The translations under genes were made by a program, and so were the position numbers. Below, in pieces: positions 4,701-52,000 of a DNA stretch of 64,000 bases. The stretch spans positions 31,620,001 through 31,684,000 of the forward strand of contig OZ287756.1 in the NCBI GenBank assembly GCA_965649765.1, written 5' to 3'. The first letter of the stretch is position 1. Every line of letters starts with the position of its first letter. The notes beneath the pieces were generated by a model. The model saw only the letters and a list, made by a program, of their open reading frames with translations. It was not told where the DNA came from and searched no databases. Source of the stretch: Bispira polyomma. Taxonomy: Eukaryota.

Positions 4701-7700
4701 TGAATTGAATGAATTAGTGGGGGAAATGCCATGTGACCAATTATTTAATTAGGGAGAAAAGGGTAAGCACTAAATACACAATGACACAAAATGTGTGGTC
4801 TCTTGGAATCTAGAATACCTTCAACAAGATAAATAAGCACACATACATGAATAGTGTAACACATTAGATTAATTTTATACTCCATTATTTTCCCAAATAT
4901 ATTGATATTTTTCTACATCAACATGTTCTCAATCGCATATATTCTTCCTTAACTTTTATAAATATATGTAATTTTACATACACATGATAGACTTCACTTC
5001 TAACCCAAATGATATTAAACCTGTTTATTACTTCCTTGTAAAATGCACTGGTCTGGTGTATGAAATAACATGAAGATCAACTTTTCCACTACGCTTAGTG
5101 AACTAGAGTATTTATTCAGACAACTTTAATCCTACATAGTGTCAACATATGTTACTTTAAAAAAATAATTTGCCACATAAAACAGTAAACCTGTTCAAGA
5201 GGACCCTTTCATGACATCACAAAATTGGATATTGGATATTTATTGTTGGTGATCATAAATAACACTTTCCTTTGTATAAGATACAGAATTGGTTCTATTG
5301 TTCACTTGCAGTAAATTCAGAATTTAGGAATACAAAAGATGCCACAGTGACATATCATATTATGCGTTAATACTTAATTGATTGCAGAAATAACTTACTA
5401 ATGGGAAAAATGTACTATTTAAATTTATATCATATAACACTTCACAATTATGTTGGGGGGGGGGGGGGGTATATCCTAATGGGTTTTAGTGGTGTATATT
5501 TGAGCATGTATGCAGCATGACAACATATGAGTCTAATGATTCAGTTCTCCTCTTTTTTCATACACTACTTCAATCCCTAGGTGCAAAGTTGAACATTATT
5601 CTTTACTCTATCCATCCTCTCTCTCATTACATTATTTTAAATTGAATGCGCTCATTATACATGACAGCATCAGCTCTCAGTTTCTAGAATTGAGGCATAA
5701 TGCAAACATGCATGTACCCAATAACTAACACACATATTAATGCCAGCCTACTGGCTGGCATAAAATCAATTTGAGTAGGGTTTGCGTGGTGTTTGAGGGA
5801 GCTGACGTAATATACATAAACATACATAACCTGACGTGAAAGATGACATGCCAGAAATTTATAATTTCCAACCATTTGAAATTTGGACACGCAAACCACA
5901 TAAGATTGATACATGGTTTACCGTAATATTTGTGTGAGGTTTGTGAGAGATGGCGTAGTATAACGTGGTTTGACGTAGCCAAACGAGTGTTAACGTAATG
6001 CACGTAATACAGCATAAGAATACATAGAAATTGACGTAGTAATATCTATATTAACATTAAAAATTCCGCCTTACGAAAGATTACATAGACATACGTACAT
6101 ATAACGTAATAAATTATGTGACTTAACATAATATTACGGCCTTCAATGTGTACAGATGTGTGCCACTTAAAACATAATTTTTATGTGAATTGTTGCAACA
6201 GCTGTGAGTCTTTACATGTATTAAAATAAAATTACGTGGATCTCTGCATAAGTTAATGCCTTTGACATAATAATAAAATATAAATTGATTACTGCATGGA
6301 CTTTTGCATCAAATATTTGCGTGGTAAACATAGGCTAACGTAAATCCAGTGGGACTGGGACATAACACTAAATTAGGGGCCACATAATGGGTTCCCACAA
6401 AAACACCCACCTTTGGAAACTCAGACCAACACTAGTCAGTCTAAAATAAATTCTGAGGCTGCAATTTTGGAAGGAAATGATTTGTTGGACCATTTACAAT
6501 TATTTTACATGTGTTTTAGTGTCTCACTCACAAGTGTTTAGTTTAATTAGGATATATATCACCTACAAGATGTAAACATATGGCTCTATAATATGGGGCC
6601 AAAGGTGCATAATACTAAATAGTGCTACCAAGGAGAAGTGCAACAAGTGTCAGAGAAGACACACACCTCCTCTGGGGGCCGAGTGTAAGTGATCCAGGCC
6701 AGAGGATCACACCATCTTAAATGCTGAGTCTGAAGGGCACACAATGGAGTCGCATATCAGTGGAGAGTTCCAATCAGGATGATGCATGTCAGAGGAAAAA
6801 GGAGGCCACTGCAAGAAGAGCCAGCAACAAGGACGTCCTCGACCAGCTCGACACCTTCATGGACAAGTTTGATAATAACGAACATAGAGTGAGTACACAA
6901 AAGTGACAGCGGGATGCAGAGCTATTTCTCCATTCAAACCCTCCACGCATAGCTCTCCTAAACCGGTGAAATCCAGTAGACATGGCATCAATTCGTGGGC
7001 GCCTCATTCAGGTGTACAGAAACTGATTCGATCATCCAGGAGGAGGTTAACCAAAGGCTGAGAGAATATGATGACTTTTTAAGGGAGGAAGCACCAGGTA
7101 CCGGAAAAAGCAAACATAATTTGAAATCAGAGAGATACAGAGTAGGGGATCAGAGAGTAAAAGTTGCCGTCCCTGCTTTGGATGCTAGAGGAAAACCTTA
7201 ACATGCCCACAAACAAAAACTATATTACAATGGGTGTAGGGCTAGATATATGCTTCACAAGAGAGATGATCAGATTCGAAAGAATATGCTGCACTACCAT
7301 TTTCTGCTTATACAGGATGCAGTGGATCTCTCATAGCGCAGGGCTAATTCAGCTTATGCTGCCATTTCGTCTGAAATAGAAAGGGGAAATTTACCATGGG
7401 ATGACAGTATAGACAGAGTTGGGCAAATATTTGCCCAGAGTCAGGAAACTGCGGACAGAAAAGATCAGAGGGTTTGATGAAATAAATAGGTATCCCTTAA
7501 GTGCAGTCAGTACACCTGGGAGGTTTTCCAATTTCCGCAGCCGCAACATAATGTGTGTGAAATAACAAGTTTTGACCTATCTCAGGTCATGTGTAGTGCT
7601 GGTAATATCAACCAAAATAGTAGTATTAGTACAGGTTGCTTTAGTCTAGGGCTTGTTAATAATGTGCAGTGTAGCTGCATTCAAAAGTTTTGTACGGTAA

Positions 7701-7887
7701 ACCAGGACATTAGCAGTCTTGATTGCTAGTATAGTTTTACTACAACAGAAGGCACACAGATTAGCTGTGAGGTCACAGGCACAGGTACACAGATACTTTT
7801 GATACCACAAGTGGGTGATAGTTTAATGTTTAGCAACATGGAAGGTTTCACTCACCTCTCACTTGCTTAGAAATTATCCAACATGAC

Positions 7888-8041
7888 CAGTCCAATGGTG
7901 GTGTGAAAAGTTATAAGTTAATAAGTAAGTTTATTATAAGACAGTAAAAGATTGCATTTGAGGTTTTTATTTACATGTTAGCTTATGTACAGGTTGACAA
8001 TCAAAGTCAGTTAAAATTTCAGGATGGAATTTTAAGCCCCA
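7888..8041 (-). repeat. E1 terminal repeat B2
   Basis: Identical to 9140-9293; contains AATAAA on the element sense strand. Confidence 0.95.
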
Positions 8042-8653
8042 TCACGGCTACCATAAAATACAGCCGGGTCAAAAATAAAAACCCATAACAAAGCTAATAA
8101 TAAGCTAAGAGACAATCACAAATATAAAGAATAGTGTAAACCCCTCAGTCACACCAGACTTTGGATTAGAACCAATAAAATAACCTCAAAAGAGGAAAAT
8201 ACATTTAAATACATTGATTACTATAAACATGACTATCATTAACATCACCTTCAACTAGTTCATTGTGTGAATAATGTACTGTAATATACAACAAAGTTAC
8301 TTTTGGTGACTAAGATACTAAGAACAATTTCAGGGGATAAACTTCCCTGTTTACTGTAAATTCTGACATGTATTTGTGATACATGGATACTAATTGACGC
8401 TAGGTGATCGTGTACAAAAAGGTGCCCTTGTGGGGACCACACGTGTACCCAAGTTATCGTCATTGTGTCTAAATTGGTACGTTGTGTTACTTATTCAACA
8501 AGTGGTATTAACTAGCTCAGTAAGCGTCCCTTGGATCGTTAACTTGAGTCATATGAAGCTGACCACTCTAATGTCGCGTATGTTATAACCCCATATGAGT
8601 CAATGTTCAACTATGCTTATAAATTGAAAATAAGTCCATGCAAGAGAGAACAT

Positions 8654-8826
8654 GCAACGTAGTAACAGCAGGACCCCGGGCCTTGGACACCAACCGCCTA
8701 GCAGGGTGAAGTCCAACCTCTCAGAGCCCCTTATTCCACTCTGGAACCCCAGTGGTGAACTCAGAGGAGGGAGTAAGAAGGAAGGACCCCAGACCCACAC
8801 AGCCCGGAGCCCGGCCGCCACGTTGC
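8654..8826 (-). ncRNA. Putative structured RNA element in the E1 A2-B2 spacer
   Basis: Long closing stem rich in G-U pairs that works only on the minus strand; homolog with retained pairing at 33362-33544. Confidence 0.6.
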
Positions 8827-8916
8827 CGTCAAACCTGCCTGGATAACCTTATGCATCAGAGAACCTTAAAATTTCTATAAATCCTTAATAACGCTGTGGT
8901 AAGGGGAGGTGGTGGG

Positions 8917-9293
8917 TTTCAATTTTCTAAATGTCCTGTCTACAGGTGAAAACACAAATTCAATATGGAGGATAGCTATCCTAGCTTAGGGGTCACTAAT
9001 AGCTAATGCTGTGATTGGACAAGGCCCAGATGGACAGAAAGTTGGATAATGCTATTGCATTCGCTAGGGATTAAGGTAGTGTGATAGAAAAAGGAGGTTG
9101 GACTGAACTAGCAGTCCCCTGGGGTGGACTTGCTATGCACAGTCCAATGGTGGTGTGAAAAGTTATAAGTTAATAAGTAAGTTTATTATAAGACAGTAAA
9201 AGATTGCATTTGAGGTTTTTATTTACATGTTAGCTTATGTACAGGTTGACAATCAAAGTCAGTTAAAATTTCAGGATGGAATTTTAAGCCCCA
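8917..9293 (-). repeat. E1 internal B1-A2 repeat (circle-junction copy), junction at 9139/9140
   Basis: A2 8917-9139 matches 15223-15445; B1 9140-9293 matches 7888-8041. Confidence 0.95.
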
Positions 9294-9300
9294 AGCCCAA

Positions 9301-10271
9301 CTAAGAAGGAGGGATAGCAGCAGCAAAGAGAGGCACCACTGAAGCAGCTTGGGAGGTCTTCTGTAGGTAGGTCCATACAGCTGAAGACCTCCACAGGCCA
9401 TGGGACATAATATTCTGCAGTGATACGTTTTTATTGAAAGCAAATGTGGCCCCCGACCTCCTAAATGTGTGGAACCCGTGTGAATGGTATGGAATGCCTA
9501 TGTGTTCTAAGACTCTCTGTAATGCGACTCTCACATGTGTCTCTATGACTGGGTAAAATGGTGGTGAGTTAACTGCAAACAGTGGTGCAGATGGAGGGAG
9601 AGGCCTAGACAAGATAAGCTGCTGTATAGCCCTTACTGGACATAAAATTTGGTTTTGAAGTGCAGGAATTTGTATAATGTGGGAGTCTGATCTGTTTTGA
9701 AGGTTCTTAGCCCATTTCAAGATGACATGGGCCCCAGGAGGGGCAAAGATAATATCCTGTCTAAGAAAGTGCCTAGATGGGTCAAACGCTGCCCTAGAGT
9801 GAGAAGCCAGATTGGAAAGTCTCAAGAAGCCGAAAAAGGCTAGAAGGAAAATAGCCCTAAAAAGTACTGGATCCTGCAATATCTGACAAGCTTGGGATAT
9901 CTGTGTTAACTGATGTATATCAAACAATCCCTTAGGTCTAGGCCTGAAAGTAGAGTTGATGGTAATGCTTCTCGTAAATAAAGAAACAGAGTTGTGTGTA
10001 AAAGGAGCCATACTCCACTGTAATTTGTTAGCCATAAATTTAAGTGATGAGAGGTAATTGGCAATGACAGCCGGTGAAAGGCTATTCTGTGCTAAGTATT
10101 CTAAGAAAGCCAGAACTGATGAAACATTAATGTGTTTAATGCCAGCAACATGTAAGAAAGCTAAAAATGTCTTGAATTGGTTACTGTAAGCTGTAGTGGT
10201 CTTTGGTCGCAGTGCCAAGTCTATTCTGTTGCAGGCTAATTGAACAAGTGTATGAGTGGAACTGGCAGAAC
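9301..10271 (-). CDS. Tyrosine recombinase of E1 (probably exon 2 of a spliced Gag-YR mRNA)
   Basis: Catalytic R (GFLRLSN), K (WAKN), HxxR (HTFRR), H (HGLW), Y (WTY) all present; frame open up to the tttcag acceptor at 10272-10273; no ATG at the start. Confidence 0.92.
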
Positions 10272-10277
10272 CTGAAA

Positions 10278-12107
10278 TTACACAGATAAGGCCAGGTCAA
10301 AGTACCTTATAGGGACCTCATTCCATTTATAACAATTTTGTAATTTAACAGTTAGCTCTGCAGTAGGAGGTTTATCTGAAAAAAGTCTAGAAAGCGCATC
10401 TGCAATCACATTATTTTTCCCTGGAATGTGTTGTATGTCAATTGTGATGTCATGTGTGGCTGCAAGCAGCCAGATATTCCTTAAACATGAGGCCAGAAAG
10501 TCATCCTTAGTTTTTTGTGAATTCACAACCAGTACTACGGCCATGTTGTCACAGTGAAACAAAACCCGTTGATGCGCCCACTTTAATGCCCATACACGCA
10601 ACGCGAGAATGATATTCAGCATCTCTAAGTGAACTATTGTCAACTCTCTGCCAAAAACATTGAAATATGGTGTAGCGTACACCTCATCTTTCCACACGCC
10701 TCCTAAACCGGTAAGGCAAGCGTCTAAATGTAACTCACTCATGTTTTGAATCATAGGATGGTCAATGAAAGTTACTCCGTTAAATGTCTGTAAGAACTGC
10801 TTGAACCACGCTAAGTCGTTCCGCATGTCTTGAGAAATAGCAAATTTTTTCTTACCCTCGTTGTTTCTAAATGCGTGAAGCAGTCTATTAATAAAAGTGC
10901 GTGCCGGCTTGACGCATTTGTGCACATACAGAAGTTTCCCTAAGAGGGACTGAAACCGACTGCGCGTTATGAAGCGCCTGTTAAACACGTCGCACACACA
11001 TTCAAGAATCTCTTCTATTTTCCCATGCTGGATGCTAATAGTACCAGCAACAGTGTCAATATTAATACCCAAACAAGTAATGCTAGTACTAGGTGGGGTG
11101 CGTTTGTTGGCATTCATGGGGAGACCTAAATAGTCTAGCAGTTTGGTCAAAATCTGAAAACCCCTGTGAGCCTCTACTCTATTGGAGACGCAAATGTAAT
11201 CGTCGATGTAGCAGAACATATTGAAACCGTTTTTGCACATATATGATGCTATTGCGTCAGAGCAGTGTTGAAACGCCGCGCTGCCATGAATCCAGCCAAA
11301 TGCCACCGCAGGATCTATGTAACTACCCTCTTCAAACTGGATTCCTAATTTTACAGCGTCGACAGGATCTACACGCAAATTACGGAAAGTGCAAGCTACG
11401 TCGATTTTAAACAATACCGGATCATCTGTGACTTTGACCGCACTAGTAATATCATCGATTGTAGGAAATTTCAGAATAAATTTTTTCCCATCAAACATAT
11501 TCTTATCAACATTCTCATTAAGCGAATTGCCTTGTGGGTATGAGAGGTTCAGAATTACCCTACGACTAGTAATGTCCTTGGGACGTGTGAGAAGTGGTGA
11601 ACAATGGTAATGTGAGGAGCTAACCTCCTTCACTGGGCCCAACATGGCACCCTTATTACTTTCTTTAACCAGATATTCTCTCACACTACTTGTGTGTTGG
11701 AGGGCAGAATAATGATTGGTAACAGAGGCATTGTTAAGCATTTCTGGATTGGTGAGAGAAAGAGGAAAGCCGAATCTAATGTACTGACACAGCAACTGGT
11801 CAGGATAATCTTGGAAAACTTCATCCCATGCATCTGGATTAAGTCCTGACACCAGGGGAACCCTTGCTTGTCTATAATTGGGAAGTGCAGTGTCTCTGAT
11901 AACAGAAGCCACTTGCAGCATGTCTTCTACTGTTTCAATTCTCTTAACAGGTTTGTCAGGACCTATGAATGTGAATGCTGTTGAGGAAAGTGCCAAGAAA
12001 CCCATGGTTTTCTCGGGGTCATTAAAGTCCTTAATTTCTTTGTACAAATCCTTGTTTGCTCGAACACTATCAACCATTTGAGTGAATTCATTGCTCGACG
12101 AGTTCAT
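10278..12107 (-). CDS. Reverse transcriptase-RNase H of E1 (C-terminal part of pol)
   Basis: 609-aa ORF with DIRS-type RT (FGW..GS..FQ, YIDD, CLGINID) and RNase H (LDAC, LEMLN, CDN, NVIADALSR). Confidence 0.95.
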   Translation of the reverse strand: MNSSSNEFTQMVDSVRANKDLYKEIKDFNDPEKTMGFLALSSTAFTFIGPDKPVKRIETVEDMLQVASVIRDTALPNYRQARVPLVSGLNPDAWDEVFQDYPDQLLCQYIRFGFPLSLTNPEMLNNASVTNHYSALQHTSSVREYLVKESNKGAMLGPVKEVSSSHYHCSPLLTRPKDITSRRVILNLSYPQGNSLNENVDKNMFDGKKFILKFPTIDDITSAVKVTDDPVLFKIDVACTFRNLRVDPVDAVKLGIQFEEGSYIDPAVAFGWIHGSAAFQHCSDAIASYMCKNGFNMFCYIDDYICVSNRVEAHRGFQILTKLLDYLGLPMNANKRTPPSTSITCLGINIDTVAGTISIQHGKIEEILECVCDVFNRRFITRSRFQSLLGKLLYVHKCVKPARTFINRLLHAFRNNEGKKKFAISQDMRNDLAWFKQFLQTFNGVTFIDHPMIQNMSELHLDACLTGLGGVWKDEVYATPYFNVFGRELTIVHLEMLNIILALRVWALKWAHQRVLFHCDNMAVVLVVNSQKTKDDFLASCLRNIWLLAATHDITIDIQHIPGKNNVIADALSRLFSDKPPTAELTVKLQNCYKWNEVPIRYFDLALSV

Positions 12108-12160
12108 CTATATTTTATCACAAATCAGACTGTTTACAGTCTCACTTGGTTTTTGTGTAC

Positions 12161-12972
12161 TGTTACGGTGACGGGAGCAAGCGCGGTAGCAATTACCGGT
12201 TGCTTTGAGGTTGTAACAGGAAAAGACAAAAAGTTTCACTTAACAAATTTATTTAACAAATAAAATAACAACTACAGAATTACAGAATTATAAAATTACA
12301 AAATTACAAAATTACAGTCAACTGAGATACCCTTAATAGCTCACACAATAATATAATAATGAAATCAATCTGACCTGACCACAGTCCTGTCCACTTAAAT
12401 AACAATTAAACCAGTTTGTCCACTGTATCCAGCAATCTGTCTTGAGATCCGCTCAATGTCCACACAATGCCTGTATCCTGTTATCTGTTCAGCGTCCACG
12501 CACACAAAATGTATATATCCAGAGAATCTGCACAACTAAGCTATCCAGTCCAGGATGCAAACAATATCCAATATGCAGTAAATCCAATCTCTGGTAGATC
12601 CACAACTTTTATCTAGTTCACTCCAATGAGTTCACCACAAAATGTATATAACAAACAGTATAGTAGTTCATATAGCATTCATATAGCACCTCAGCTCAAT
12701 TAAATCTCTTCTGTGGCCAGACTGTCAACCCTTATATATACCACTGCTAGAGAAGGTTGCTAGAATGTGTAAGCAATCGCTAGGACATTCCAGAGATGAG
12801 ATATACATATGAATACAACTTTAATAACCTTCAGAAATAAAATAGAACCGGTTTCTAGAAGCTTAGGGGTTTCCCCAAATCTATAAATAGCTCACTCCAG
12901 CAGAGTGTAAAACCATTAGTACTAACTAGACCGGTTTTTCTTCCACACACCACAATGTCCCCATATGTAACA
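12161..12972 (-). mobile_element. Solo LTR of the Gmr1-like Gypsy family, inserted in E1 pol
   Basis: Reverse-complement match to LTR 54431-55211; TGT...ACA ends; GTAC flanks both sides. Confidence 0.93.
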
Positions 12973-13895
12973 GTACTTACATTTGACAAGTCTGCACAAT
13001 TGTCTGACTTATGGCAATTGTCAGGTGTTTCGTCTTCACTGTCACTAATAAGTGCATCTACTAACCTGGTCATGTATTCAGTATAATCAAAACCCAACTG
13101 CTTGAAACAGGCATTATCTCTTTCGAAATAATAAAATGTATCAGCAGCTTGCTTGATCACAGCCTGGTGATGAGTTTCCACATTAGTATTACTGGTAGTA
13201 TTTAAAGAAACAGCCTGAACCTGGATTATGGTTTGAAAGGTTTGAATAATACAAAGGTTTTGGCTAGGTGGCAATTCAACACGAGCATATACACACTTGG
13301 CAGCAGTCACGTCATAAAACATGTGGAAATAACCTGAGAATTTTCCATCCCTATCCCTAATGTAAACAATTGGGGCCAAATTTTGAATTTCCTCACAAAA
13401 AGTTTTCCAATTGGTAACTGATACCTGACACGTGTGTGCCTCTTTGTTCCAAGCTGGTGAATTAGCATAGTGACTGCTCCCATTTGAAATGCAGGCCTCA
13501 GTGCTCCTGTCCCATCTATGGTGACCCGACTGGGTCCTGCTCTGAAATTGAATACATTCATTTACATTCTTGGTTTCATACTGGTAGTTGTCGCCAGCAT
13601 CTACTGAAACTGCAAAATTATTAAAGACATCATTATCAACAAAGTTCACCTTTATATCAGTGTTGAATACATTATTGACAAACCTTGTACTATCTGACAT
13701 TATCATCTGCTGATAATCATTACTATTGGAACTTTGCACAATTGTATTAATTTCAGACATGCCTCTGTCGCAATAACCTAATTCACTGTTTTTGTCCTTT
13801 ATATTAAACTCTTTTACAAATTTACTGTTACCGTTCATCATTGAATTACCCTTATCACTACCTAATGTTCGTCCAACTGGTTGTGAATCGTGGCC
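12973..13895 (-). CDS. N-terminal extension of E1 pol (unknown domain), cut off by the solo LTR
   Basis: Open frame from just after the gag stop; removing the LTR and one TSD copy restores frame with RT, leaving one TAG at 12108-12110; homologous residues in E2. Confidence 0.75.
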
Positions 13896-15128
13896 CTAGA
13901 TGTTACCTTGTTGTTTGTCTGGCTGTTTACTTACATTCGCTTTAAAGCATTTGAACTCTGGGTGCGACGCGTCCTTTCCTAATGTCTTATTACAATACCA
14001 ACATACATGACGATAATTGCCATGATCCGCCTTGTGAGTACACTTGCCATTATTAAACAGCTTACAGATGGATTTACTATCTGAAGAAGCCCCGTTAGCC
14101 AAGTTACTGCCATTGTTGCCTACCATAGCCATCTGGGAGGCACTGATGCGATTCAGTGCCCACTGAGTGTTGTCCTGCCAGGACAGCCTGCCTTCCTCTA
14201 TCTCATGCATACTGACAGCCCAGGCTGTCCTGACAGCAGGCCACGGAAGTGTGGCTGCATCCCGTAGTGCGTGTACCACTTGGTTCACCATAGCTTTCAT
14301 TGTTGCCGGATAACTTACTTGTAGCGAGTTGGCCAGCTGGCCAGCCGCCCACTGCGGCAACGTGAGGTCGTCAAAGACTGGCCTTCGACGAGTCGATCCC
14401 CCACCCCAACCTTCGTTAGACCATCTGAGTTGGGGATCAGCTAAAGTAATATCTGTGGAGTTATAACGACCAGACTTCTGCCTGATTGAGTGCTTACCCT
14501 GGACTAGACCCCTCTGGGCCAAGGCTTCGTAGTCAGCCAGCTGCCTGGTAACGGCCGCCTGCACATTTGGAAAAGATCTTAATGCATTGAGACTGGGGAC
14601 AATGCCATCTGTGTTGTAACCCTGACCTGTTGGTGGTTGCATCATAGGTTGAGCCAGCGGCTGCGCGACCCCGTTGTACCTGGGAGGGGGAAGAGGTAAC
14701 GAATAACCCTCGTGTCTCTGTTGGACCACCGTACCATCCCTCATGGTGTGTAATGGAGAATTAGCGGGTGTAACTGTCTGTTTGTCCTCTACAAGTTGCA
14801 ATCGCCGGGTTATGTTAGCGTTGGAGGTCTCCAGACCACGCAGAATGGAAAGAACCTCGGACATGCTTTGTGACTCGACTTGTGACTGGGGTACGGCCTG
14901 AGATGAGAGCCCGGCTTGGCTAGATGATCCATTTGAACTGGTCAGTAACTGAGAACCAATAAGAGGACACGCAGTGTCGGCAATGACTGTTCTATGTATT
15001 TCTGATTGATCGTGAGTATTAGTAGTAGTTACCTGACCAGTACCCCTTTTCTTGGCTGTACTAGTTGAAGTTGTCTTTGTGGTCCGTTTCTTGCTGTTTA
15101 ACACAGGAGTTGCTTTTGTTTTCCCCAT
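13896..15128 (-). CDS. Gag-like protein of E1
   Basis: Coiled-coil segment, KSGR motif, W-rich conserved core, C-terminal C-x4/5-C-x-H...HVC-x2-C...H..C cluster typical of DIRS/Ngaro ORF1; first ATG at 15128. Confidence 0.9.
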   Translation of the reverse strand: MGKTKATPVLNSKKRTTKTTSTSTAKKRGTGQVTTTNTHDQSEIHRTVIADTACPLIGSQLLTSSNGSSSQAGLSSQAVPQSQVESQSMSEVLSILRGLETSNANITRRLQLVEDKQTVTPANSPLHTMRDGTVVQQRHEGYSLPLPPPRYNGVAQPLAQPMMQPPTGQGYNTDGIVPSLNALRSFPNVQAAVTRQLADYEALAQRGLVQGKHSIRQKSGRYNSTDITLADPQLRWSNEGWGGGSTRRRPVFDDLTLPQWAAGQLANSLQVSYPATMKAMVNQVVHALRDAATLPWPAVRTAWAVSMHEIEEGRLSWQDNTQWALNRISASQMAMVGNNGSNLANGASSDSKSICKLFNNGKCTHKADHGNYRHVCWYCNKTLGKDASHPEFKCFKANVSKQPDKQQGNI

Positions 15129-15222
15129 TTCACACAACAATCACTAGTTCCAGTACCACGTCAGTTAATAAAAAGAAGTAAAATATAAATAAAACCAATT
15201 CAGTGTAAATACGTGGTTAAAA

Positions 15223-15445
15223 TTTCAATTTTCTAAATGTCCTGTTTACAGGTGAAAACACAAATTCAATATGGAGGATAGCTATCCTAGCTTAGGGGTC
15301 ACTAATAGCTAATGCTGTGATTGGACAAGGCCCAGATGGACAGAAAGTTGGATAATGCTATTGCATTCGCTAGGGATTAAGGTAGTGTGATAGAAAAAGG
15401 AGGTTGGACTGAACTAGCAGTCCCCTGGGGTGGACTTGCTATGCA
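15223..15445 (-). repeat. E1 5' repeat A1
   Basis: Matches 8917-9139; contains CCAAT (sense) and the palindrome aggatagctatcct. Confidence 0.95.
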
Positions 15446-20605: not shown

Positions 20606-20883
20606 GTACGGAAGAGTATAAGGGCCATCTTTTTTTCTTTTTTTTTTTGAATTGCCGAGATAATATCTCAATAAATCGAGATAATTTAGAAGAATTTTTT
20701 TTTTTTTTTTTTTGATTGTCGAGATAATATCTTGATAAATCGAGATAATTTAAAAATAAAATTTTTTTTGAGTTGTCGAGATAATATCTCGATAAATCGA
20801 GATAATTAAGAAGATTTTTTTTTTTGTATATTTTATTTTCCAATGTACAATAGTTGATAGCATGGCCTTTGGGCATTTTAGTA
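20606..20883. mobile_element. MITE-like element with three internal gtcgagataatatctcgataaatcgagataatt units; inverted partial copy at ~21845-21990
   Basis: Imperfect TIRs (tacggaagagtataagggcca / tggcctttgggcattttagta); palindromic internal units separated by T-runs. Confidence 0.55.
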
Positions 20884-21377
20884 AATTATGTATATAACGC
20901 ATTTGTAACATATAGTACATACTACAAGTAATCCCTTAAATATAAATGACAGTTTATTTTAAAAGGTAGCCCTTAAGGTTGCCTTAACTAAAATTGCTGA
21001 GTTATTAGTAAAGATTCAAGTAACTCAAATGCAAGATGACCTTAAGTCTCTTCTTTACTAGTGGTATGCTATAATGGGTAGATGACATTAAGTCATTCGA
21101 CTTTTCCTAATTAAAGTTACCCTTAAAAGCATGGTTATTATAGTTAATGTTAACCTTAAAGTCATTCACATTATGGTGACTTTCAGTCACCCTTGGTAAT
21201 TTAAAATGGTAATTCTCTATAGTTTAGTAAGGTGACCTCAAAGTCACTGTGTTATCTATACTCATGGTTAACTTAATTATGTTAAAGTGGCCCTAACTTC
21301 TTGGTCACCTAAAATTGTAATTAGTAAATAAAATGACAAATACTGACCAATTTTGTTGAAATTGACTTTTGTTAAAA

Positions 21378-21765
21378 GCCTGATTAACTATTTTTGACCC
21401 TAACTATGACTGTTCGTATCTTGCCCTGATTAACTACTTTTGACCCTATGACTGTTTGCTGATTAACTACTTTTGACCTCTATGACTGTTTGTGTCCAGG
21501 GGAGTAGCCAGGTCTTTTCATTTGTTACTCCCAAATTAAACCAATATATTAGGGTATATTTTGTCTTACCAAAAATTCAATTCGTGGGAGGGGGGGGGGG
21601 GGGGGGTATTGACATAATATTTTGGTTTACTTGAGGAGTACTAACATCTATGACTGTTTGTGTCTTGCCCTGATTAACTACTTTTGACCCCTTGACTGTT
21701 TGCTGATTAACCACTTTTGAACTCTGTGACTGTTTGCTGATTAACTTTGACCCGATGACTGTTTG
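21378..21765. repeat. ~33-bp minisatellite (ctgattaactacttttgaccctatgactgtttg), interrupted by a ~150-bp poly-G-containing segment
   Basis: About 3 units on each side of 21497-21647. Confidence 0.75.
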
Positions 21766-23099
21766 CGCCCTTTTCCATGTTGGCTGTTCAGTTGGCCACT
21801 CACACACCTTCTTTCTCCATGGTGGATAATTAATATCGTGACAATTAAAAAAAATTGTTTTAATTATCTCGATTTATCGAGATATTATCTCGACAATTCA
21901 AAAAAAAAAAAACTTTTAAATTATCTCGATTTATCAAGATATTATCTCGACAATTCAAAAAAAAAAAAAAAATTTTATTTCTAAATTATCCACAAAAATG
22001 GCTTATGATGATGAATAAATCAGTACTACACATCTCAGAAAAGTTTCTTTAATTAGAAAAATTCACATTATAAGAATTATAAAACAAATCTTAACAAAGA
22101 CAACTCCTTGTAACTTTAGACATATCCTGCGGGTCTTTCAAGGCTCAATAGCCAAACTGAGTCATTAAGAGTTAATAATGAGTCTGCCAAGAGTTATGCA
22201 AAGTTGATAAAGAGCCAACAAATAATCATGCAGAGCTATTCCTATGTCTCACAGACCCTTCCTGAGCTGTCAATTGCTTATCCGAAGTTTACGAAGACTA
22301 CACCCAATTTAACACCACAGGCTTGCCAGAAGCTTGTCCAGAGTTAAACAGTGCTAACAAGACCTATACTGAGTAGCTATGAATAACACTCCTGACAAGG
22401 TCCTGGTAACTCTTGGCAACTATGTAAGAGCAAATAATGGTAGACTGAATAATTCAAGACATTAAACAACTAAATATTAAATCTTGCATGATCCCAGTGT
22501 ATGGATTACATAATATGATTAAAATAATTTTACAGCTTATCCTTTCAAATAACTTATTCTCTTAGAATTAATCGATTGCAAACCATTGTTTTGTCTTTGC
22601 ACAAATAATTAAGTCAATTAGTGGCTGGGAATGCACTGATCATTACAATTGCACAAGAAAATGCAAATGAAAGGTTATTTAAGTCAATTTTGATTCCAAA
22701 ACCATTGTCTTTTTCTATATAATATGACATTGTGCCACAATAACAAATCAGGAATACTAAAATTCTAAAAACAATATTTTTTTTGTTTTGGGAAATCTCT
22801 TATTTGAACAACCAATGGTTGAAACCAACATATAGAATGTACATATAAATGTATGTCTTATTTCACAATACAAAACAATATGTAAGTATGTCTTACTTTT
22901 TTAAGTAACAATATGTATAACCCTTTGGTCATTAGATTTACATTTTTTAATACATAAGGACACAAGACCCCACAAAACACTTACAGCACAAAACAGTGGT
23001 CAATTATCACAAAACAATTATTGTTACACCCAGTTATTGAAAATACTTAACTATAAAAGTAATGTTATTAAATAACAGTATTATTATATACAATTGAAC

Positions 23100-25310
23100 A
23101 TTGCATAGTTGGTTGGATGGTTGGATGTTTTTTGTTAGTTTTGACTTCCAGATGTAATATTTAGCATAATTGTATTCATTTGATTCACAATATTATATTC
23201 ATGATCACTTTTGTTGGCAGAAGAAAAATATGTTGCCAGATATCTCCATCAAGACCATATTTCTCCGAATTTTTAATTAAACCAACTGTATTTTGTAGTT
23301 TCGTGTGCACAAAAGCATTATCTAGTGATTTAGACTTCACTGAATTAATTTCACAAGATGTATTATTTATAGTAATACATGGTGTCTGTTTTATACACAC
23401 ATTTTATACTTTGTGCATTAACCCTGAGTATTGTTTTCAATTTAGTGGGATATAATGTACTGGACTTTGCCATGAGAACCTATACTTGGAACTAATGTTA
23501 AACTTATTCTGAACTTCATTAAAAGCCATGATATTGCCATCATTATTTAAATATGTAAAATTATTATTACATGATTTTCTGCCAATTCTTTATGAAATAC
23601 TGTTGGTTCATGCACCTTATTCTATTTGTTGTACCATATAATTGAATTACATACCTCCTTATAAGTGAAATTTTCATAACATTAAGATGACCATCTTGAT
23701 CAAACTTCTTATAGAATGGATTTAACTTACTTATTATCATATTAACTTTGCATAAATATATCTGTTGTTTTGAGTAAAATTTAAACATGACTTTCCAGAT
23801 ACTATTACAATATGTGCTGATATATTTTTGCTGAATGACAGTTATTTTAGATTCCAAATCAAGTATATTTTGACCTTCAAATTCATATGTCTGTATGACA
23901 TTATCTTTAGAGCTACCTGAGAAAAATTTGTACGTCAAAGTATTTTTTTCTCTACCACCCACGATGGTATACATATGACTGAGGCCAAGTACAGAAACTC
24001 CCATTACCTTTATAATTAAAACCTTTCCTGTTAAAGACAAATTTTTCATTTTCCATGAATTCAGTGCTTTTTTTTAAGATCTGAAAGCTTTGACCCAAAA
24101 ATTTTATTGTTAGCTTCAGTTGTATTGTATGAAAAATTAACACCTAATATTTTGAAGGGCTCGTTTGGCGATTCTATATTTATATTAAAATTTTGATCAC
24201 TTGTTTATCTTGAAGATTACTCAGAAGAACTGCTTCTGTTTTTTTGCATATTAACTTAGAGAACTGATACTTTTTCTAAATCCTTCTGTATTTTGAGAAA
24301 CATTTGTGCAGATTTATTGCCTAATAATATTCCAGCGGTGTCATCTGCATACTGGAGTAACTTTATTTCCATGTTATTTATCTTGACTACACTTTTGTTT
24401 TTGTTCCCGTCTTACGGCTAAGGCTAATATTTCTACTGCTGCTTTAAATCATTATGGAGACAGTGGATCTCTTGTCATACTCCTCTAAAAAAAGCAGAAA
24501 TACCCTGACGTAAATCCATTGTCAATTATGCAACTGTAAATATATGAATACAGAATGCTCACCCATTTTCTGAATATTTTTCGTGTCTTAGTTGATTTTC
24601 ATTTATAATTTCTGGTAACACTTTCTTCATTCAAACAGCCAGTCCTTTTGTTGAAATTTTATAATCACAATTGAGTAGCGATATGAGATGCCAATGTTTC
24701 AACAAATTTCTATTCTCTTGTTTTAGGAGTGTAATAATAGCCTGCCGTCGTGATACTAAAAACATTTCTTTTTTAATTGCCTTATTAAAAGTGCTAGTCA
24801 CATTTTTCAATATTTTTCCAAAATTTTATATAAAACTCAATAGGTATACCATCATTTCCAGGGGTTTTATTTACCTAAAAAGTTTTTAAAACCTCCTCAC
24901 ATTCCTGTTTAGTTAATGTAAGACTTATTAAAAGAGCTAAAATCACAACATTTGTTCAACATAGATTTAAATAGATTTTTTTTTGTATATTCTAAAATGT
25001 CTTTATCTGTTATAACTTGTCCATCATCTAATTGCAGTTTTATCTACTTCCCTATATAATTATGTTTTTCTAAACAAAAAAAAATATTTGATGCTTTTTT
25101 TCCTTCGTCATACCATCTGACCTTTGACTTTTATAATACCCCCTAAATTTTATATTTTTCTGCCTACTTCAATAGCTGTTTGGCTCTGTCATATTTTTCT
25201 AAAATACAGCTTTGGTCTTTGTCTTCTTTATCTAGATCTTCTTTGAAATGTTGTAATTCTGCCTTTAAATTATTTTTAATTAACCTTTTCCCTTTTGCTT
25301 TTTCTATTAC
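23100..25310 (-). mobile_element. Degenerate L1/Tx1-like LINE RT fragment
   Basis: Minus-strand remnants: QYADD (ggtgtcatctgcatactg ~24340), LSLTGKVLIIK, PGNDG; many stops. Confidence 0.7.
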
Positions 25311-25345
25311 TGTATAATATACTAAATTGTCTGGTACCTATTACA

Positions 25346-25765
25346 GGTTACATTCAGCTATAAAATAATACAACAAACTGTGATAACTATGACAGCTTAC
25401 ATTCAGCTATAACATAATACAACAAACTGTGATAACTATTGCAGGTTACATTCAGCTATAAAATAATACAACAAACTGTGATAAATATAACAGGTTATAT
25501 TAAACCTTAAAAATATTACAACAAACTGTGATAAGTAATATGGTTACACAACTAAAAAAATAATACAACAAACTGAGTTAACTATTGCAGGTTACATTCA
25601 ACTGTAAAATAATACTACAAACTGAGAAAACTATTACAGTTACATACAACTATAAAATAATACAACAAACTGTCATAACTAGTAGAGGTTACATTCGACT
25701 ATAAAATAATACAACAAACTGTGATAAGTATTATATTCATCTATAAAGTAATACAACAAACTGTT
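25346..25765. repeat. 49-bp minisatellite downstream of the receptor gene A tail exon
   Basis: ~8-9 units of ggttacattcagctataaaataatacaacaaactgtgataactattgca. Confidence 0.9.
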
Positions 25766-25969
25766 TACTCATTTTGAAAAGGACAAAATGTACAGATTTT
25801 AGTATACAAAGTGCAAACTCTCTCAGTCTTACAACAGATTAAAAACAATTAATGGATGTCTGATCAATAAAACATAATTGGGTAATACCGAATCAGACTA
25901 CACATATAGTTACTGAGAAAATAAATTTAATCACTGCAGTTGTTAGATTAACAGATGTTAACTTTAAGG

Positions 25970-30429: not shown

Positions 30430-31510
30430 CATAATAAAGGTGAATTCACACCTCAAAAAATGATAGACCCATCAGTTTGACAAATGTTGATTATAGGATA
30501 CTCGCCTTTGCATTGTCATTACACCTTCAGAAAGTTATTACAAACATTATTTCACCTGAGCAAACCGGTTACATTAAGAGCCGTTTCATAGGAACTAATA
30601 TTAGAGCTATACTCAATATATGTGAAAATATTGAAAAAAGAAATATTGAAAAAGCCTTTGACAGTGAGGAATGGCCTTTTTTATTTTCCACTCTGAAAAA
30701 ATTCAAATTTGGTGCACAATTTATCAGATGGATAAAAATACTGTACAAAGAACCAAAAGCTATTATAAAAAATAATGGCTACCTCTCTGATAAAGTTAAT
30801 ATAATGCGTGGAATAAGACAAGGATGTTCTATACCTACTTTACTCTTCATTCTTATAGCTAAAATATTTGCCCATAAGATTAAATATTCTAACTCATTGA
30901 AAGGGGTCACTGTAAAAGAAGGGCTCAAGAAATTTGAATTTAAATCATTTTAATATGCTGATGATATTAGTTTGTTTCTTCAAAATGATAATGAAATACC
31001 TAAGGCTTTTGAAATTATATCAAAATTTACTACAGTAGCAGGCCCTAAGCTAAACATGTCAAAGACTGAAGGTATTTGGCTTGGCATCAATAAACATAAG
31101 CAACAAAATTGCCATACAGCTAGAATCAATTGGCCCACTGCCCCAGTCAAATGTCTAGGAATATATATTGGTACTGATGAAAATGAATGCATGAAATTAA
31201 ATTGGGACCACAAATTACAGAAAATTCAATCAGAACTCATTTCTTGGAAAAAGAGAAAGCTAACTCTCTTTGAAAAAATCACTATTATAAATTCCTTATT
31301 CATACCCAAACGAATCTTTCCAGCGCACTTTTTGAATGTACCATCCTACGTTATTAAAAGTATGAATAAAGTTTTATATAATTTTTATGGCATAGTCATG
31401 ACCGAATTAAAAGAAATACTCTTATTGCAGATTACAGTGAAGGTGGACTAAAAATGATAGATGCTGAATCTCAAATCCAAGCCTTGAAAGCCTCCTGGGC
31501 TCATTGGTAT
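30430..31510 (+). mobile_element. L1/Tx1-like LINE RT fragment
   Basis: LTNVDYRILA, QTGYIKSRFIG, EKAFDS, RGIRQGC, YADD, CLGIYI motifs; stops and frameshifts. Confidence 0.85.
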
Positions 31511-43400: not shown

Positions 43401-44189
43401 ATATATCATTGTGTAAATGCTAACATGGGATTGTAGATATCATTTGACCATCAGGAATATGATTGAAAGTAATAAAGTGCGTCTGCTTACCAATTACTAT
43501 ACAACCCTTTCAAAAATTTCAAGACAAAAACAGCAAGCATCTATTTATAACTCAGAGCCTAAAAATGTAGAAAGATTACTTTTTTGGACCCATTGTTAAA
43601 TTTATTTACAAAGTAATAAATCACTAAAAAGATTGTTCTGATTTTGGAAAACATTTTTGTACTACATGATTGGTTAATTGATTATGTTGTTTGGCTTCAG
43701 AAGATGCCTTATGTAAATAAGGTACATTAAAAATACATAATACAATGCAAAAGGTTTAAATAATATTGTAAATTTTTCAAATAAAAATACACAAAATCAG
43801 TAAAACTTTAATACAAGCTATAAGCTATTAAGCTATAATGGAAGAATTTTTTATTTTACAAATACAGTTTGTATCACTTTACAAATGGATGATAGCATGA
43901 CATTTTTACTGATACATAAGTAAAAGGGACTTTAATTGATCATATTATATTCACAATATTATTTGATAATTTCCTGATATTCATGATATAATTACTAGTT
44001 CAGGTAGACTATTGATCAAACTATATAGTGATATTATTAACTGTGATAATAATTAATTTACTATCAGAGTAAATTAGATTAATTGTTCAATACCATAAGC
44101 TTAAAAAAAATTATTTTTGAATTGAGAATACATATTGTCACAGTTGCTAACTGTGAAACATGCTTTTATCAATAGTCATAACTAAAATG

Positions 44190-44410
44190 GGTAACATTCA
44201 GCTACAAAATAATATGATAAACTGTGGTAACTAACACAGGTTACATTCAACCTTAAAAATAATACAACCTGTGGTAACTAATACAGCTTATAGTCAACTA
44301 TAAAAAAATACAAAAAACTGTGGTAACTAAAACAGGTTATATTCAACCTTAAAAAATAATACAAAAAACTCTAATAAGTAATAAAGGTTACATTCAACTA
44401 TAAAATAGTT
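44190..44410. repeat. 49-bp minisatellite paralog downstream of the gene B tail exon
   Basis: ~4-5 units similar to 25346-25765. Confidence 0.8.
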
Positions 44411-49022: not shown

Positions 49023-52000
49023 CAGTCCCCGTTGTTAAGGTTGATATAGAAGGTCAGAGTTATATAAGTGAGTTTAAATGTGTAAGTTGTGGTGAAGTTT
49101 ATGAACACAGAGATAGTAAAAGATTTCACTTTGAGGGCTATACAAAATAGCTATACAAAATAAATATCATGGATGATCTTGGATAATATATGTTCTGTAG
49201 GAGTGTTTTATGAAATGTGATTGTAGTGTATATGTAATGTATTTTTTATGTTGAAATGTACCGTTGTAGTGTATATGTAACGTATTTTTTATATTGAGAT
49301 GTACCATTGTAGTGTATATGTAATGTATTTTTATGTTCAGATGTACCATTGTAGTATATATGTAATGTATTTTTTCTATTGCATGGCGTTAACCTTGATA
49401 ATGTATTCAGGTCTTGTAAAGCATTGTAGTGTATATGTAATTGTGCTTTTATGTTCAGATGTATGTAATGTATTCATGGCTTGTAAACCATTGTGGTGTA
49501 TATGTAATGTATTTTTGTGTTCAGATGTAATATATTCATGTCTTGTTTAAAAAAAAAAAAAAAATGGTGGTGGGAAGTTAAAATAATTTTCACTTGTTGC
49601 TTCTTCAAAGTCAATCTCAATATGGCAGTATAATCCCAAGAAAAACCAGGGAATGTTCATTAATTTAGCAATGTGATTGGCCCTAGCATAGCTATGGTAA
49701 AATGTCCTGAGGATAGCTATACCTAATTTTTAATTAAGGTGGTGTGTTGTATTTAACGTTGACTGAGATAGCAGTCTCCTGAACTAGACATGCTTAGCAC
49801 AGTCCCCGTTATTAAGGTTGATATAGAAAGTCAGAGTTATATAAATGAGTTTAAATTTGTAAGTTGTGGTGAAGTTTATGAACACAGAGATAGTAAAAGA
49901 TTTCACTTTGAGGGTTTATTTTTACATGTTAGTAGTATATGTACATGATATTATATAAAAGGTAAAATGCTTCAAAATTATATTTAAACATCACAAATCT
50001 TTACAGCCCCATGCCAAACCAAGGAATAGTGGGAGATGGCAGAGGCTAAATGGACCACTGAGGCAGCTTGTGAAGTATTTTGTAGCTATGTCCACACAGC
50101 AGATGACCTCCACAGTCCGTGGGCCATAATGTTCTGGAGTGAGACGTTTTGGTTGAATACAAAAGTGGCTCCCGACCTTCTGAATGCCTGGAATCTGTGT
50201 GAACTATGTTGAATGCCAATGTGTTGTAAAAGTTTTTGTACAGCAGATCTTACATGTGAATCAATAATTGTGTGATATGGTGGAATTTTTGATGTAAACA
50301 GTGGTGCCTTGTCCGAAATTTGTCTGGACAAAAGCAGTTTCTTAAGAGCTAAGACTGGGCAGATGTGAGAATTTTCCAGTAGTGGAATCTGAATTATATG
50401 AGTGTCAGTTCGATTTTGTAAATTTTTTTTACCCCATTTCAAGATCATATGAGCTCCTGGGAGACCAAAAATGACATCCTGTCTAAGAATATGCCTGGTA
50501 TTGTCAAACGCTGATTTTGAATGAGGAGCTATGTTTGATAACCTCAAGAAACCAAAAAAGGCTACTAAAAAAGTAGCCCTAAAGAGTAATGGATCATCCA
50601 GGATTTCACAAGCTCTAGATATGAGAATAAGCTGTTCTATGGTAAAAATACCTAAGTCTTAAATTGTGCATTGTATGCTGTAGATGTCTTTGGTCTTAAG
50701 GCTAAGTTAATTCTGGCATTGGCTGAAGCCATCAAAGCTTGGCTGATGCATGTAGAACCTCAAATTATATAGATAAGTCCAATTTGAAGTATTCAATTGG
50801 TACTTGATGCCATTTAAGACTGCTGTCTATTTTATTTGTCTCGATCCGACACCTTGTCTAAATACAATCCAGACAATGCATCTGCAATAACATTTTCCTT
50901 ACTAGGAATATATCTAATTTTAAGACTAATGTCATAAATAGCTGTTAGTAACCAGATGTTTCTTAAGCATAAGTCCAAAAATCTATTTCTGTTTTTTTGT
51001 GATTCGAAAACCAGAACCATAGCCATGTTGTCACAGTTGATCATTAGACTACCATGTCTCCACTCCTCAGCCCATACATGTAAAGCAATGATTATGTTTA
51101 ACATTTTGAGATGTACGCATATCAATTTTTACGATTGTCAATGTCCGTACATTGCTGAAAAGCCGCGCTTTCATGCACCCACCCGAATGCAATTACAGAG
51201 TCCACATAGTACTCATCTTTCCAAGAAATTCCTAGCTTTATTGCATCCACAGGGTCATCCCATAGGTTCCTAAATGCCCTGTCCACGTCAATTTTGAACA
51301 AGGTGGCATTTTCTGTATCTCGTATGGCTTGTGTGATGTCATCAATTGTTGGACATTTTAATACAAATGACACCATCGAATTTATCCCTGTCGACTTTGT
51401 AATTAAGCAAGTTGCCATATGGATGAGACAAGTTCAAAATTACTCTGCGTTTATTAATATCTTTGGGTTTAGTGAGAAGTGGCAAACAATGGTAGTCTGA
51501 AGTTTTTTCTTCCTTAACTAGACCTAACATGGCCCCTAAGCAGGTTTCTTTCCTAAGATATTCCCCAAACTCATAGGGATACTGTAAAGCTGAGTAATGA
51601 TTCTTTACCTTAACATTTTCTAACTTAGTGGGAGTCCTTAAACATAGAGGAAAACCAAATGTAATATATTGTAGTAATAGCTTGTCAGGATAATCCTGAA
51701 GCATGTGCTACCAAGCTTGTGTATTCAGCCCAGAACTTAGTGGTATTCTGGCTGATCTATAGTTTGGAACTTCTGTCTGTTTTATAATTAGAGCAGTTGT
51801 AATCATGTGTTCTACTGTTTTATATGTATTGGCTGTTTTTATGGGCCTTGAAATTCAAAGTCAGTGTCTGAAAGTGCAATGAACCCTACAGTCTTATTTT
51901 TGTCATTAATATCAGTGACCATCCTGTTGATTGGTTCACTAGCCCTTACCATATAAGTCATTTGGGAGAATTTGAACGATGCAGGGTGAGTATATTTTTC

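Follow-up and report, generated by a model that had tools for sequence, protein, structure and literature searches.

In the available sections of the literature on tyrosine recombinase (YR) retrotransposons, these elements are given three open reading frames (ORFs), and those sections are silent on how the last ORF is translated and on how the recombinase meets the cDNA. Ngaro-like elements have the arrangement A1-[gag, RT/RH, YR]-B1-A2-B2 (RT, reverse transcriptase; RH, RNase H), with the YR last and no methyltransferase (PMC4157794, PMC8547959, and PMC3266345, in the parts available); the same sources speak of three ORFs, whether separate or overlapping, without stating a route by which the YR is expressed. 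We analyzed a 64,000-nucleotide stretch of Bispira polyomma (contig OZ287756.1, positions 31,620,001 to 31,684,000; hereafter, the window), where a YR retrotransposon with split direct repeats A1...B1-A2-B2 occupies 15445 to 7888 of the minus strand. Its ORFs follow the order gag, RT/RH, YR on that one strand, and its structure fits the Ngaro-like description (see also the available part of PMC6681497). In contrast to described Ngaro-like elements, the YR here would be exon 2 of a gag fusion, pol is in frame with gag after one TAG, a hydrolase ORF is absent, and the A2-B2 spacer measures 875 bp. Comparison with diverged relatives argues that the recombinase is made through splicing, as a fusion to the N-terminal part of Gag, a reading to which we assign a probability of roughly 0.8.

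In the gammaretroviral and gypsy-type plan, UAG readthrough produces Gag-Pol, and splicing out a large, pol-containing intron gives access to a third gene; the donor used for env precedes gag, and env is translated from a start of its own. In the element studied here, the candidate donor is found 210 codons inside the gag frame, and a recombinase lacking a start takes the place of the third gene. A first-pass annotation, made from the letters of the window alone, had called the predicted message env-like, which fits the position of the intron but not the place of the donor, since a donor inside gag would make a fusion. The plant Ty1/Copia elements EVD and BARE1 also let the host spliceosome set protein ratios from a compact genome, and BARE keeps a spliced RNA pool for translation apart from the pool that is reverse transcribed (PMC3735527, in part). 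In the accounts available, however, the EVD and BARE1 splice gives Gag alone, whereas here it would skip pol and fuse part of Gag to the integrating enzyme. PAT-like elements, in the echinoderm form Pat1, likewise have split direct repeats and a Gag with a Cys/His motif (available part of PMC4157794) but encode a methyltransferase after RNase H, whereas pol here stops ∼35 residues past the RNase H end motif. Finally, the basic N terminus and the coiled coil with an RhxxhE motif resemble LINE-1 ORF1p at the level of motifs (PMC5381506, in part).

Full-text literature searches brought up no paper whose title or abstract concerns a spliced Gag-YR product; Goodwin and Poulter (2004), Poulter and Butler (2015), Repbase notes, and supplements lie outside their coverage. 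No mention of splicing was found in PMC3266345, PMC8547959, or bioRxiv 2021.08.05.455354, and the available parts of PMC7192593, PMC9341512, PMC6681497, PMC4157794, PMC1965478, and PMC12220804 use the term only in unrelated senses; those of PMC4495291 and PMC2632668 add nothing further on the question.

Candidate splice sites in gag and ahead of the recombinase

Under the proposed scheme, one transcription unit would give three proteins. Unspliced RNA would encode Gag (410 residues), and occasional readthrough of a single UAG would extend it to Gag-Pol. A spliceosomal intron running from a phase-1 donor in gag to a phase-1 acceptor 6 nt past the pol stop would remove the remainder of gag together with the whole pol frame, yielding a product of ∼533 residues that joins the first 210 residues of Gag to the whole Cre-like recombinase. 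The features concerned are the following (a caret marks a splice boundary).

13896–15128, minus strand: gag-like ORF1, 410 residues, with a basic N terminus, coiled coil, helical motif, KSGR core, and Cys/His-rich C terminus, ending in TAG and then G
14498–15128, minus strand: coding part of predicted exon 1, 210 codons plus 1 nt, phase 1 from the gag ATG
14787–14864, minus strand: coiled-coil segment of exon 1, placed by alignment and ending in RhxxhE
14492–14500, minus strand: candidate 5′ splice donor AGG^GTAAGC, GT at 14497–14496, phase 1, with constrained GGT and AAG codons
10296–10301, minus strand: branch-point-like TTTGAC, A at −26
10271–10280, minus strand: pol stop TAA and candidate 3′ splice acceptor TTTCAG^G, AG at 10273–10272, phase 1, NYA^G in 21 of 21 families
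9301–10271, minus strand: predicted exon 2, the whole tyrosine recombinase, 322 codons, first ATG at 10035 (Phage_int_SAM_1, E 9.9e-7)

The donor (CAG G^GTAAGC) lies 631 nt from the gag ATG at 15128, which is 210 codons plus 1 nt, and the acceptor (TAA-TTTCAG^GT) leaves 322 codons in the YR frame, so that the predicted join gives 210 + 1 + 322 = 533 residues. The first-pass annotation had proposed these two sites, a branch-like TTTGAC upstream of the acceptor (present at about 10301–10296), and an in-frame join of ∼210 residues of Gag, including its coiled coil, to the whole YR; the sites, the motif, and the matched phase were confirmed. Within the window copy alone, neither site is outstanding: scored with a crude weight matrix, the donor ranks 6 of 386 GT dinucleotides and the acceptor 11 of 423 AG dinucleotides. 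Support beyond chance comes from relatives. Copies of the window's own family are 94–99% identical, and because such near-identical copies cannot test constraint, we judged them uninformative and used diverged relatives. We collected 46 loci (40 diverged loci from this genome, 3 metagenome loci, and 3 earlier loci), of which 43 had a YR anchor (3 were dropped). These 43 formed 24 clusters (21 with loci of this genome), and YR DNA identities between clusters were 47–79%. Gag could be anchored in 18 of the 21 families; the other 3 were left out of the donor codon counts.

At the donor, Gly-Lys is encoded by GGT in 18/18 families and by AAG in 18/18, with CAA as the preceding codon in 15. Across 50 other conserved gag columns, by comparison, a single codon is common to a fraction of 0.25–0.76 of families (0.28–0.60 in five other Gly columns and 0.56–0.67 in two other Lys columns). 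An unbiased scan of 350 gag positions found a fixed third base only at the two donor codons (19/19); in pol and YR, 4 of 760 and 3 of 317 positions reached 90%, and none reached 100%. In 20/21 copies, the exception being the window's family, the donor scores highest among the GT dinucleotides of gag and the 5′ region, and it is in phase 1 relative to the gag ATG in 17 of the 18 copies whose ATG was located. In two metagenome elements with a gag identity of 26–32%, the site reads AAG^GTAATT and CAG^GTAATA: Lys has become Asn, and GTAA is kept. Among 61 database Gag proteins with KSGR, the residue after the first post-helix Gly is K in 40, R in 7, N in 6, Q in 3, M in 1, and I in 1, with none in 3; for these protein sequences, the residues are compatible with A at intron position +3. 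The comparison turned up no further conserved donor in gag; a site directly after the gag ATG was set aside because the Gly2 codons vary.

The acceptor is constrained in the same manner. The codons ahead of the junction are ATT (20 families) or GTT (1), then TCA (13), ACA (3), GCA (2), GTA (2), or TTA (1), then G, so that N-Y-A^G is kept under five residues (S/T/A/V/L) and always stands 21 codons ahead of the YR motif R-P-x-T (21/21 families). Three metagenome loci carry TGTAG^G, TGCAG^G, and TGTAG^A at an equal distance. At one metagenome locus, pol ends ∼340 nt upstream while the acceptor keeps its 21-codon distance, and the acceptor is, therefore, independent of the pol stop. Among unrelated YR proteins in databases, 23 extend far enough at the N terminus, and 21 of these have [S/P/V]-[G/D] at the acceptor distance. 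The pyrimidine tract is short (TT-N-YAG). The branch-like motif is less informative, in that YTRAY occurs at −26 in 14/21 families but overlaps conserved pol Phe-Asn/Asp codons and is thus confounded. A second constrained acceptor was not found in the 760 alignable positions of pol, where the variable N terminus is poorly covered. A TAG^G at the gag stop was set aside as an acceptor, being purine rich upstream and out of frame for the gag donor. Two loci (L072 and L107) have a short tandem duplication just past the acceptor that preserves the YR frame. Separately, the Ser of the pol NHYSA motif, near window position 11708, is TCT in 18/20 families despite its fourfold degeneracy; it is not a splice site.

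The pair thus has the marks of a U2 intron, with a GT donor in consensus context and a YAG acceptor with pyrimidines, both constrained. On this comparison, which covers the conservation at synonymous positions that the first-pass annotation had named as a check, the sites are under nucleotide-level selection in many diverged relatives. Could the motifs nevertheless be a by-product of protein conservation (Gly-Lys in Gag, Ile-Ser-Gly in the YR) or chance? Neither ranks first in a single copy, and the branch-like motif does overlap conserved pol codons. Synonymous positions, however, are fixed only at the candidate splice sites, and residues change while AG and GTAA stay; this codon constraint leaves the by-product reading close to refuted.

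A second clade, ∼38% identical to the window's family in RT and ∼37% in YR, has a corresponding pair of sites. The first-pass annotation had pointed to CCAG^GT near 7097 in an older plus-strand element, and this proves to be a candidate donor of the second clade, reading CCAG^GTAC(T/G)G in relatives (6/6 copies tabulated, ∼4 families). It is weaker against the consensus, and the sample is small. The 3/3 families of this clade with a YR have a phase-1 acceptor (TTGTAG^GT or TTACAG^GT) 20 codons before R-P-R-T. Donor and acceptor are phase matched in both clades.

Expression of the recombinase frame

The open YR frame spans 10296–9301. The first-pass annotation had described it as lacking a start ATG, which is correct, and had put its first Met at ∼60 residues, which is not: the first Met is codon 80 (ATG at 10035), counting the junction Gly as 1. 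Twelve of the 21 families lack an in-frame ATG upstream and have their first Met at codon 37 or later, in most cases at codon 80 or later. YR residues are invariant from codon 13 onward. The predicted structure of the 322 codons has two domains and matches Cre over its full length (TM 0.65, E 1.9e-9), although the YR profile had no sequence match in the Protein Data Bank. In the model, a start at codon 80 would delete helices 2–17, 25–42, and 49–61 and most of 66–82. Domain boundaries in the models fit the predicted join, with the donor at a helix/linker boundary and the acceptor at the start of the full Cre-like fold.

Translation from unspliced RNA would need either frameshifting by −1 where pol ends or reinitiation at a near-cognate ATT, ATA, or ATG beside the pol stop. 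In the window's family, the YR does occupy frame −1 relative to pol, whose end it overlaps; ATT stands two codons ahead of the junction in 20/21 families, and two families have an ATGA that overlaps the pol stop. This route is, nevertheless, very unlikely. The YR frame is closed 16–28 nt ahead of the acceptor in most families (by a stop 28 nt ahead of the junction in 16/21), the families share no slippery heptamer, and the ATT is missing from the three metagenome loci, in one of which pol ends far upstream. Moreover, it would leave both the invariant AG under five residues and the gag donor unexplained. Of the two escapes that the first-pass annotation had foreseen for YR translation, the frameshift thus finds no shared heptamer, and an upstream in-frame ATG exists in 4/21 families.

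The other way to account for the YR without a fusion is that both sites are genuine but are used separately. The gag donor would then bind U1 and so guard the long RNA against premature termination, or yield a short Gag RNA; the acceptor would be joined to a trans-spliced leader or to a non-coding exon further upstream, and the YR would use its own start. U1 protection is reported at the donor of the Arabidopsis retrotransposon EVD (PMC5580714, in the part available), some families offer a start of their own (Met at codon 10 only in 5/21, upstream in-frame ATG in 4/21), and spliced genomic copies were not found. We consider such separate use improbable, because 12/21 families have no Met before codon 37, most of these none before codon 80, and a start that late would cut three helices of the N-terminal domain; no other donor in gag is conserved (the Gly2 codon varies), no second constrained acceptor occurs in the alignable part of pol, and phase is matched in both clades. 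The gag donor and the YR acceptor are, on these sequence comparisons, very probably joined to each other. Nucleotide constraint at both sites, matched phase, and the want of a usable ATG in most families together lend strong support to a spliced mRNA for the Gag-YR fusion.

Several observations weigh against such a fusion. In 9/21 families, there is an ATG at or near the YR start (Met-10 occurs in 6/21 overall, from three separate parts of the YR tree). The window family's own donor, AGG^GTAAGC, is weak, ranking 4 of 93 in the 5′ region plus gag. The families are related, and their counts are not fully independent, although the control columns are saturated. Three runs of unknown kind from one study, placed on 9300–15220, gave flat, DNA-like depth, and the joint between 14498 and 10271 is absent among the 15 of 45 joints listed from these DNA-like contig runs; an 816-nt skip joint in the same contigs matches the absence of a solo long terminal repeat (LTR) in pol and served as positive control. 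For the window's family, a search for a retroposed spliced copy gave 0 exact junction matches vs. 52 unspliced ones, and a degenerate junction pattern, which would catch ∼10/19 sampled copies, gave 0 matches (control, 1). Occasional retroposition of a spliced RNA that retains A and B might be expected; the missing copies would be explained by a packaging signal in the intron or by BARE-like separate RNA pools, at the cost of an added assumption. Finally, no Gag-YR fusion occurs among 132 database proteins matching the exon-1 profile, mostly gene calls on genomic contigs.

Among the 120 of 395 YR database matches listed, none exceeds 348 residues, and the search for longer YR proteins (581–2000 residues) returned two fish gene models only, in which gag and YR join elsewhere and the gag is unlike that of the window. 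Because the listed matches stop at 348 residues and the longer search began at 581, proteins of the size of the fusion are poorly sampled. No relative of the element was found in viral contigs.

If the splice reading is true, it is a precise answer to how an ATG-less YR frame is expressed, and ORF-finder annotations of these YR proteins miss ∼170–270 N-terminal residues or begin at a false Met. The element would then be a retroelement whose integrating enzyme is attached to Gag through the splicing machinery of the host, instead of through a Gag-Pol polyprotein, with an integrase-like third gene carried on a Gag anchor.

Predicted exon 1, Gag, and Gag-Pol

Across elements, exon 1 would encode ∼170–270 residues with a Lys/Arg-rich start, a coiled coil with RhxxhE (16/21 related copies), and a conserved helix. 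A helix spans residues 15–37 of the Gag model, and the donor Gly follows at residue 39, where a low-confidence linker starts; the Gag helical core and Cys/His domain fall outside exon 1. Pfam, Foldseek, and VIA-align gave no significant match for the Gag fold (best Z 5.3), a result without bearing on novelty. RhxxhE is often tied to parallel trimers but occurs in dimers and tetramers as well (PMC5381506, in part). Since exon 1 keeps the coiled coil with this motif, tethering of the recombinase to Gag particles is plausible. Given the splice, the chances are about even that the basic N terminus and coiled coil let the recombinase co-oligomerize with Gag and travel with the RNA or cDNA that it later integrates. 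Alternatively, a start codon and a nuclear signal, the latter suggested by the basic N terminus, may be the whole role of exon 1. A wider scheme is conceivable but slightly less likely than the opposite: in at least two deep clades, the recombinase would be made only as the spliced fusion, its coiled coil would enter Gag oligomers and deliver it in cis to circular cDNA, and the whole would form a retrovirus-like three-product plan with UAG readthrough.

Among the 15 copies of this genome with pol in frame (including the window, 13893–13898, and loci L066–L110), 14 close gag with TAG and a following G, and the frame past this TAG stays open for at least 176 residues in 12/14 copies. In two metagenome elements, the gag stop is TGA, followed by 830 and 650 open codons. 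Judged from these frames, Gag-Pol is probably made by UAG readthrough, with the type of signal unclear; reinitiation at a pol Met (codon 19 in the window's family) may be an alternative. No strong hairpin was found past the gag stop (minimum free energy of −6 to −13 over 80 nt). A recurrent motif, CAA/CGA-C(C/T)A, lies a few codons past the TAG. In the second clade (L120, L121, L123, and L124), gag and pol overlap and are not in frame; the gag end ...GATCAGCGAGTT-stop is common to two families and is a possible +1 frameshift site.

Element class, family, and neighboring elements

The element has the following further parts.

15223–15445, minus strand: A1, 5′ split direct repeat, 223 bp, 100% identical to A2, with a 5′ boundary common to family copies
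12973–13895, minus strand: N-terminal part of pol, in the same frame as gag after the single TAG
10278–12107, minus strand: RT and RNase H part of pol (Pfam RVT_1, E 4.6e-8; RVT_3, E 7.9e-8)
9140–9293, minus strand: B1 repeat, 154 bp, 100% identical to B2
8917–9139, minus strand: A2 repeat, 223 bp, adjoining B1
7888–8041, minus strand: B2, 3′ terminal repeat, 154 bp

RT/RNase H (RVT_1 and RVT_3) together with a tyrosine recombinase (Phage_int_SAM, Cre-like fold), and with no DDE integrase, place the element in the order DIRS. Its termini are direct split repeats with no inverted pair joining the ends, unlike the inverted terminal repeats and internal complementary region of DIRS1-like elements. 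Pol terminates ∼35 residues past the RNase H end motif ADxLSR (4/4 copies printed), and neither its tail nor a Pfam search showed a methyltransferase of the PAT-like kind. Split direct repeats with internal repeats after the YR, the ORF order, and a methyltransferase-free pol agree with Ngaro-like elements. Judged by its structure, the element is probably a Ngaro-like YR retrotransposon; structure alone can mislead in assigning YR element class (PMC4157794, in part). The single fish gene model compared for RT contained too little of it (E 0.45). The A2-B2 spacer (8042–8916) is non-coding, with no ORF over 82 residues, and is ∼99% kept across family copies.

We call the window's family young because 40 scored matches are 96–100% identical; pol is open for 928–933 residues in 6 of 20 fetched family copies. 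Related families are abundant in this genome (13,284 candidates, 122 of them scored). The window copy itself is disabled by a solo LTR within pol and a premature pol stop at 12108–12110, neither of them noted in the first-pass annotation. The solo LTR is private to this copy (present in 0/20 others). Summed contig depth over the gypsy LTR is several hundred times that over the host YR element, and a further gypsy LTR copy lies near 37.9–38.6 kb. Other elements in the window are as follows.

12161–12972, minus strand: solo LTR of the window's Ty3/gypsy element, 812 bp, within pol, with a GTAC duplication and inverted matches to LTRs at 54.4–55.2 kb and 60.1–60.9 kb
6950–7887, plus strand: E3, decayed gag and pol start of the second clade, assigned through clade relatives, with CCAG^GT at 7097/7098
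49575–54141, minus strand: E2, a decayed element of a sister family, with acceptor TTTGAG^G and the donor deleted

For E2, the first-pass annotation had the donor lost in a small deletion, which is borne out by a 24-bp deletion near 53246, and the acceptor kept, which is not: TTTGAG^G (AG at 50760–50759) is a decayed form of the TTTCAG of E2 relatives. In L051, of the E2 family, the acceptor AG is lost. This locus and four further E2-family matches on contig C7 (64.0–66.6 Mb) have identical scores and lie ∼0.4–1.4 Mb apart, which suggests a large segmental repeat. At 7887/7888, the minus-strand B2 end adjoins the pol start of the older plus-strand second-clade element, and one YR element is apparently nested in another. 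Elsewhere, the window contains 49-bp tandem arrays (25298–25781 and 44142–44407), a 1.3-kb stretch with nested inverted arms resembling a miniature inverted-repeat transposable element (20633–21990), and, judged by translations, decayed LINE-like reverse transcriptase fragments (23567–24073 and 30444–31451).

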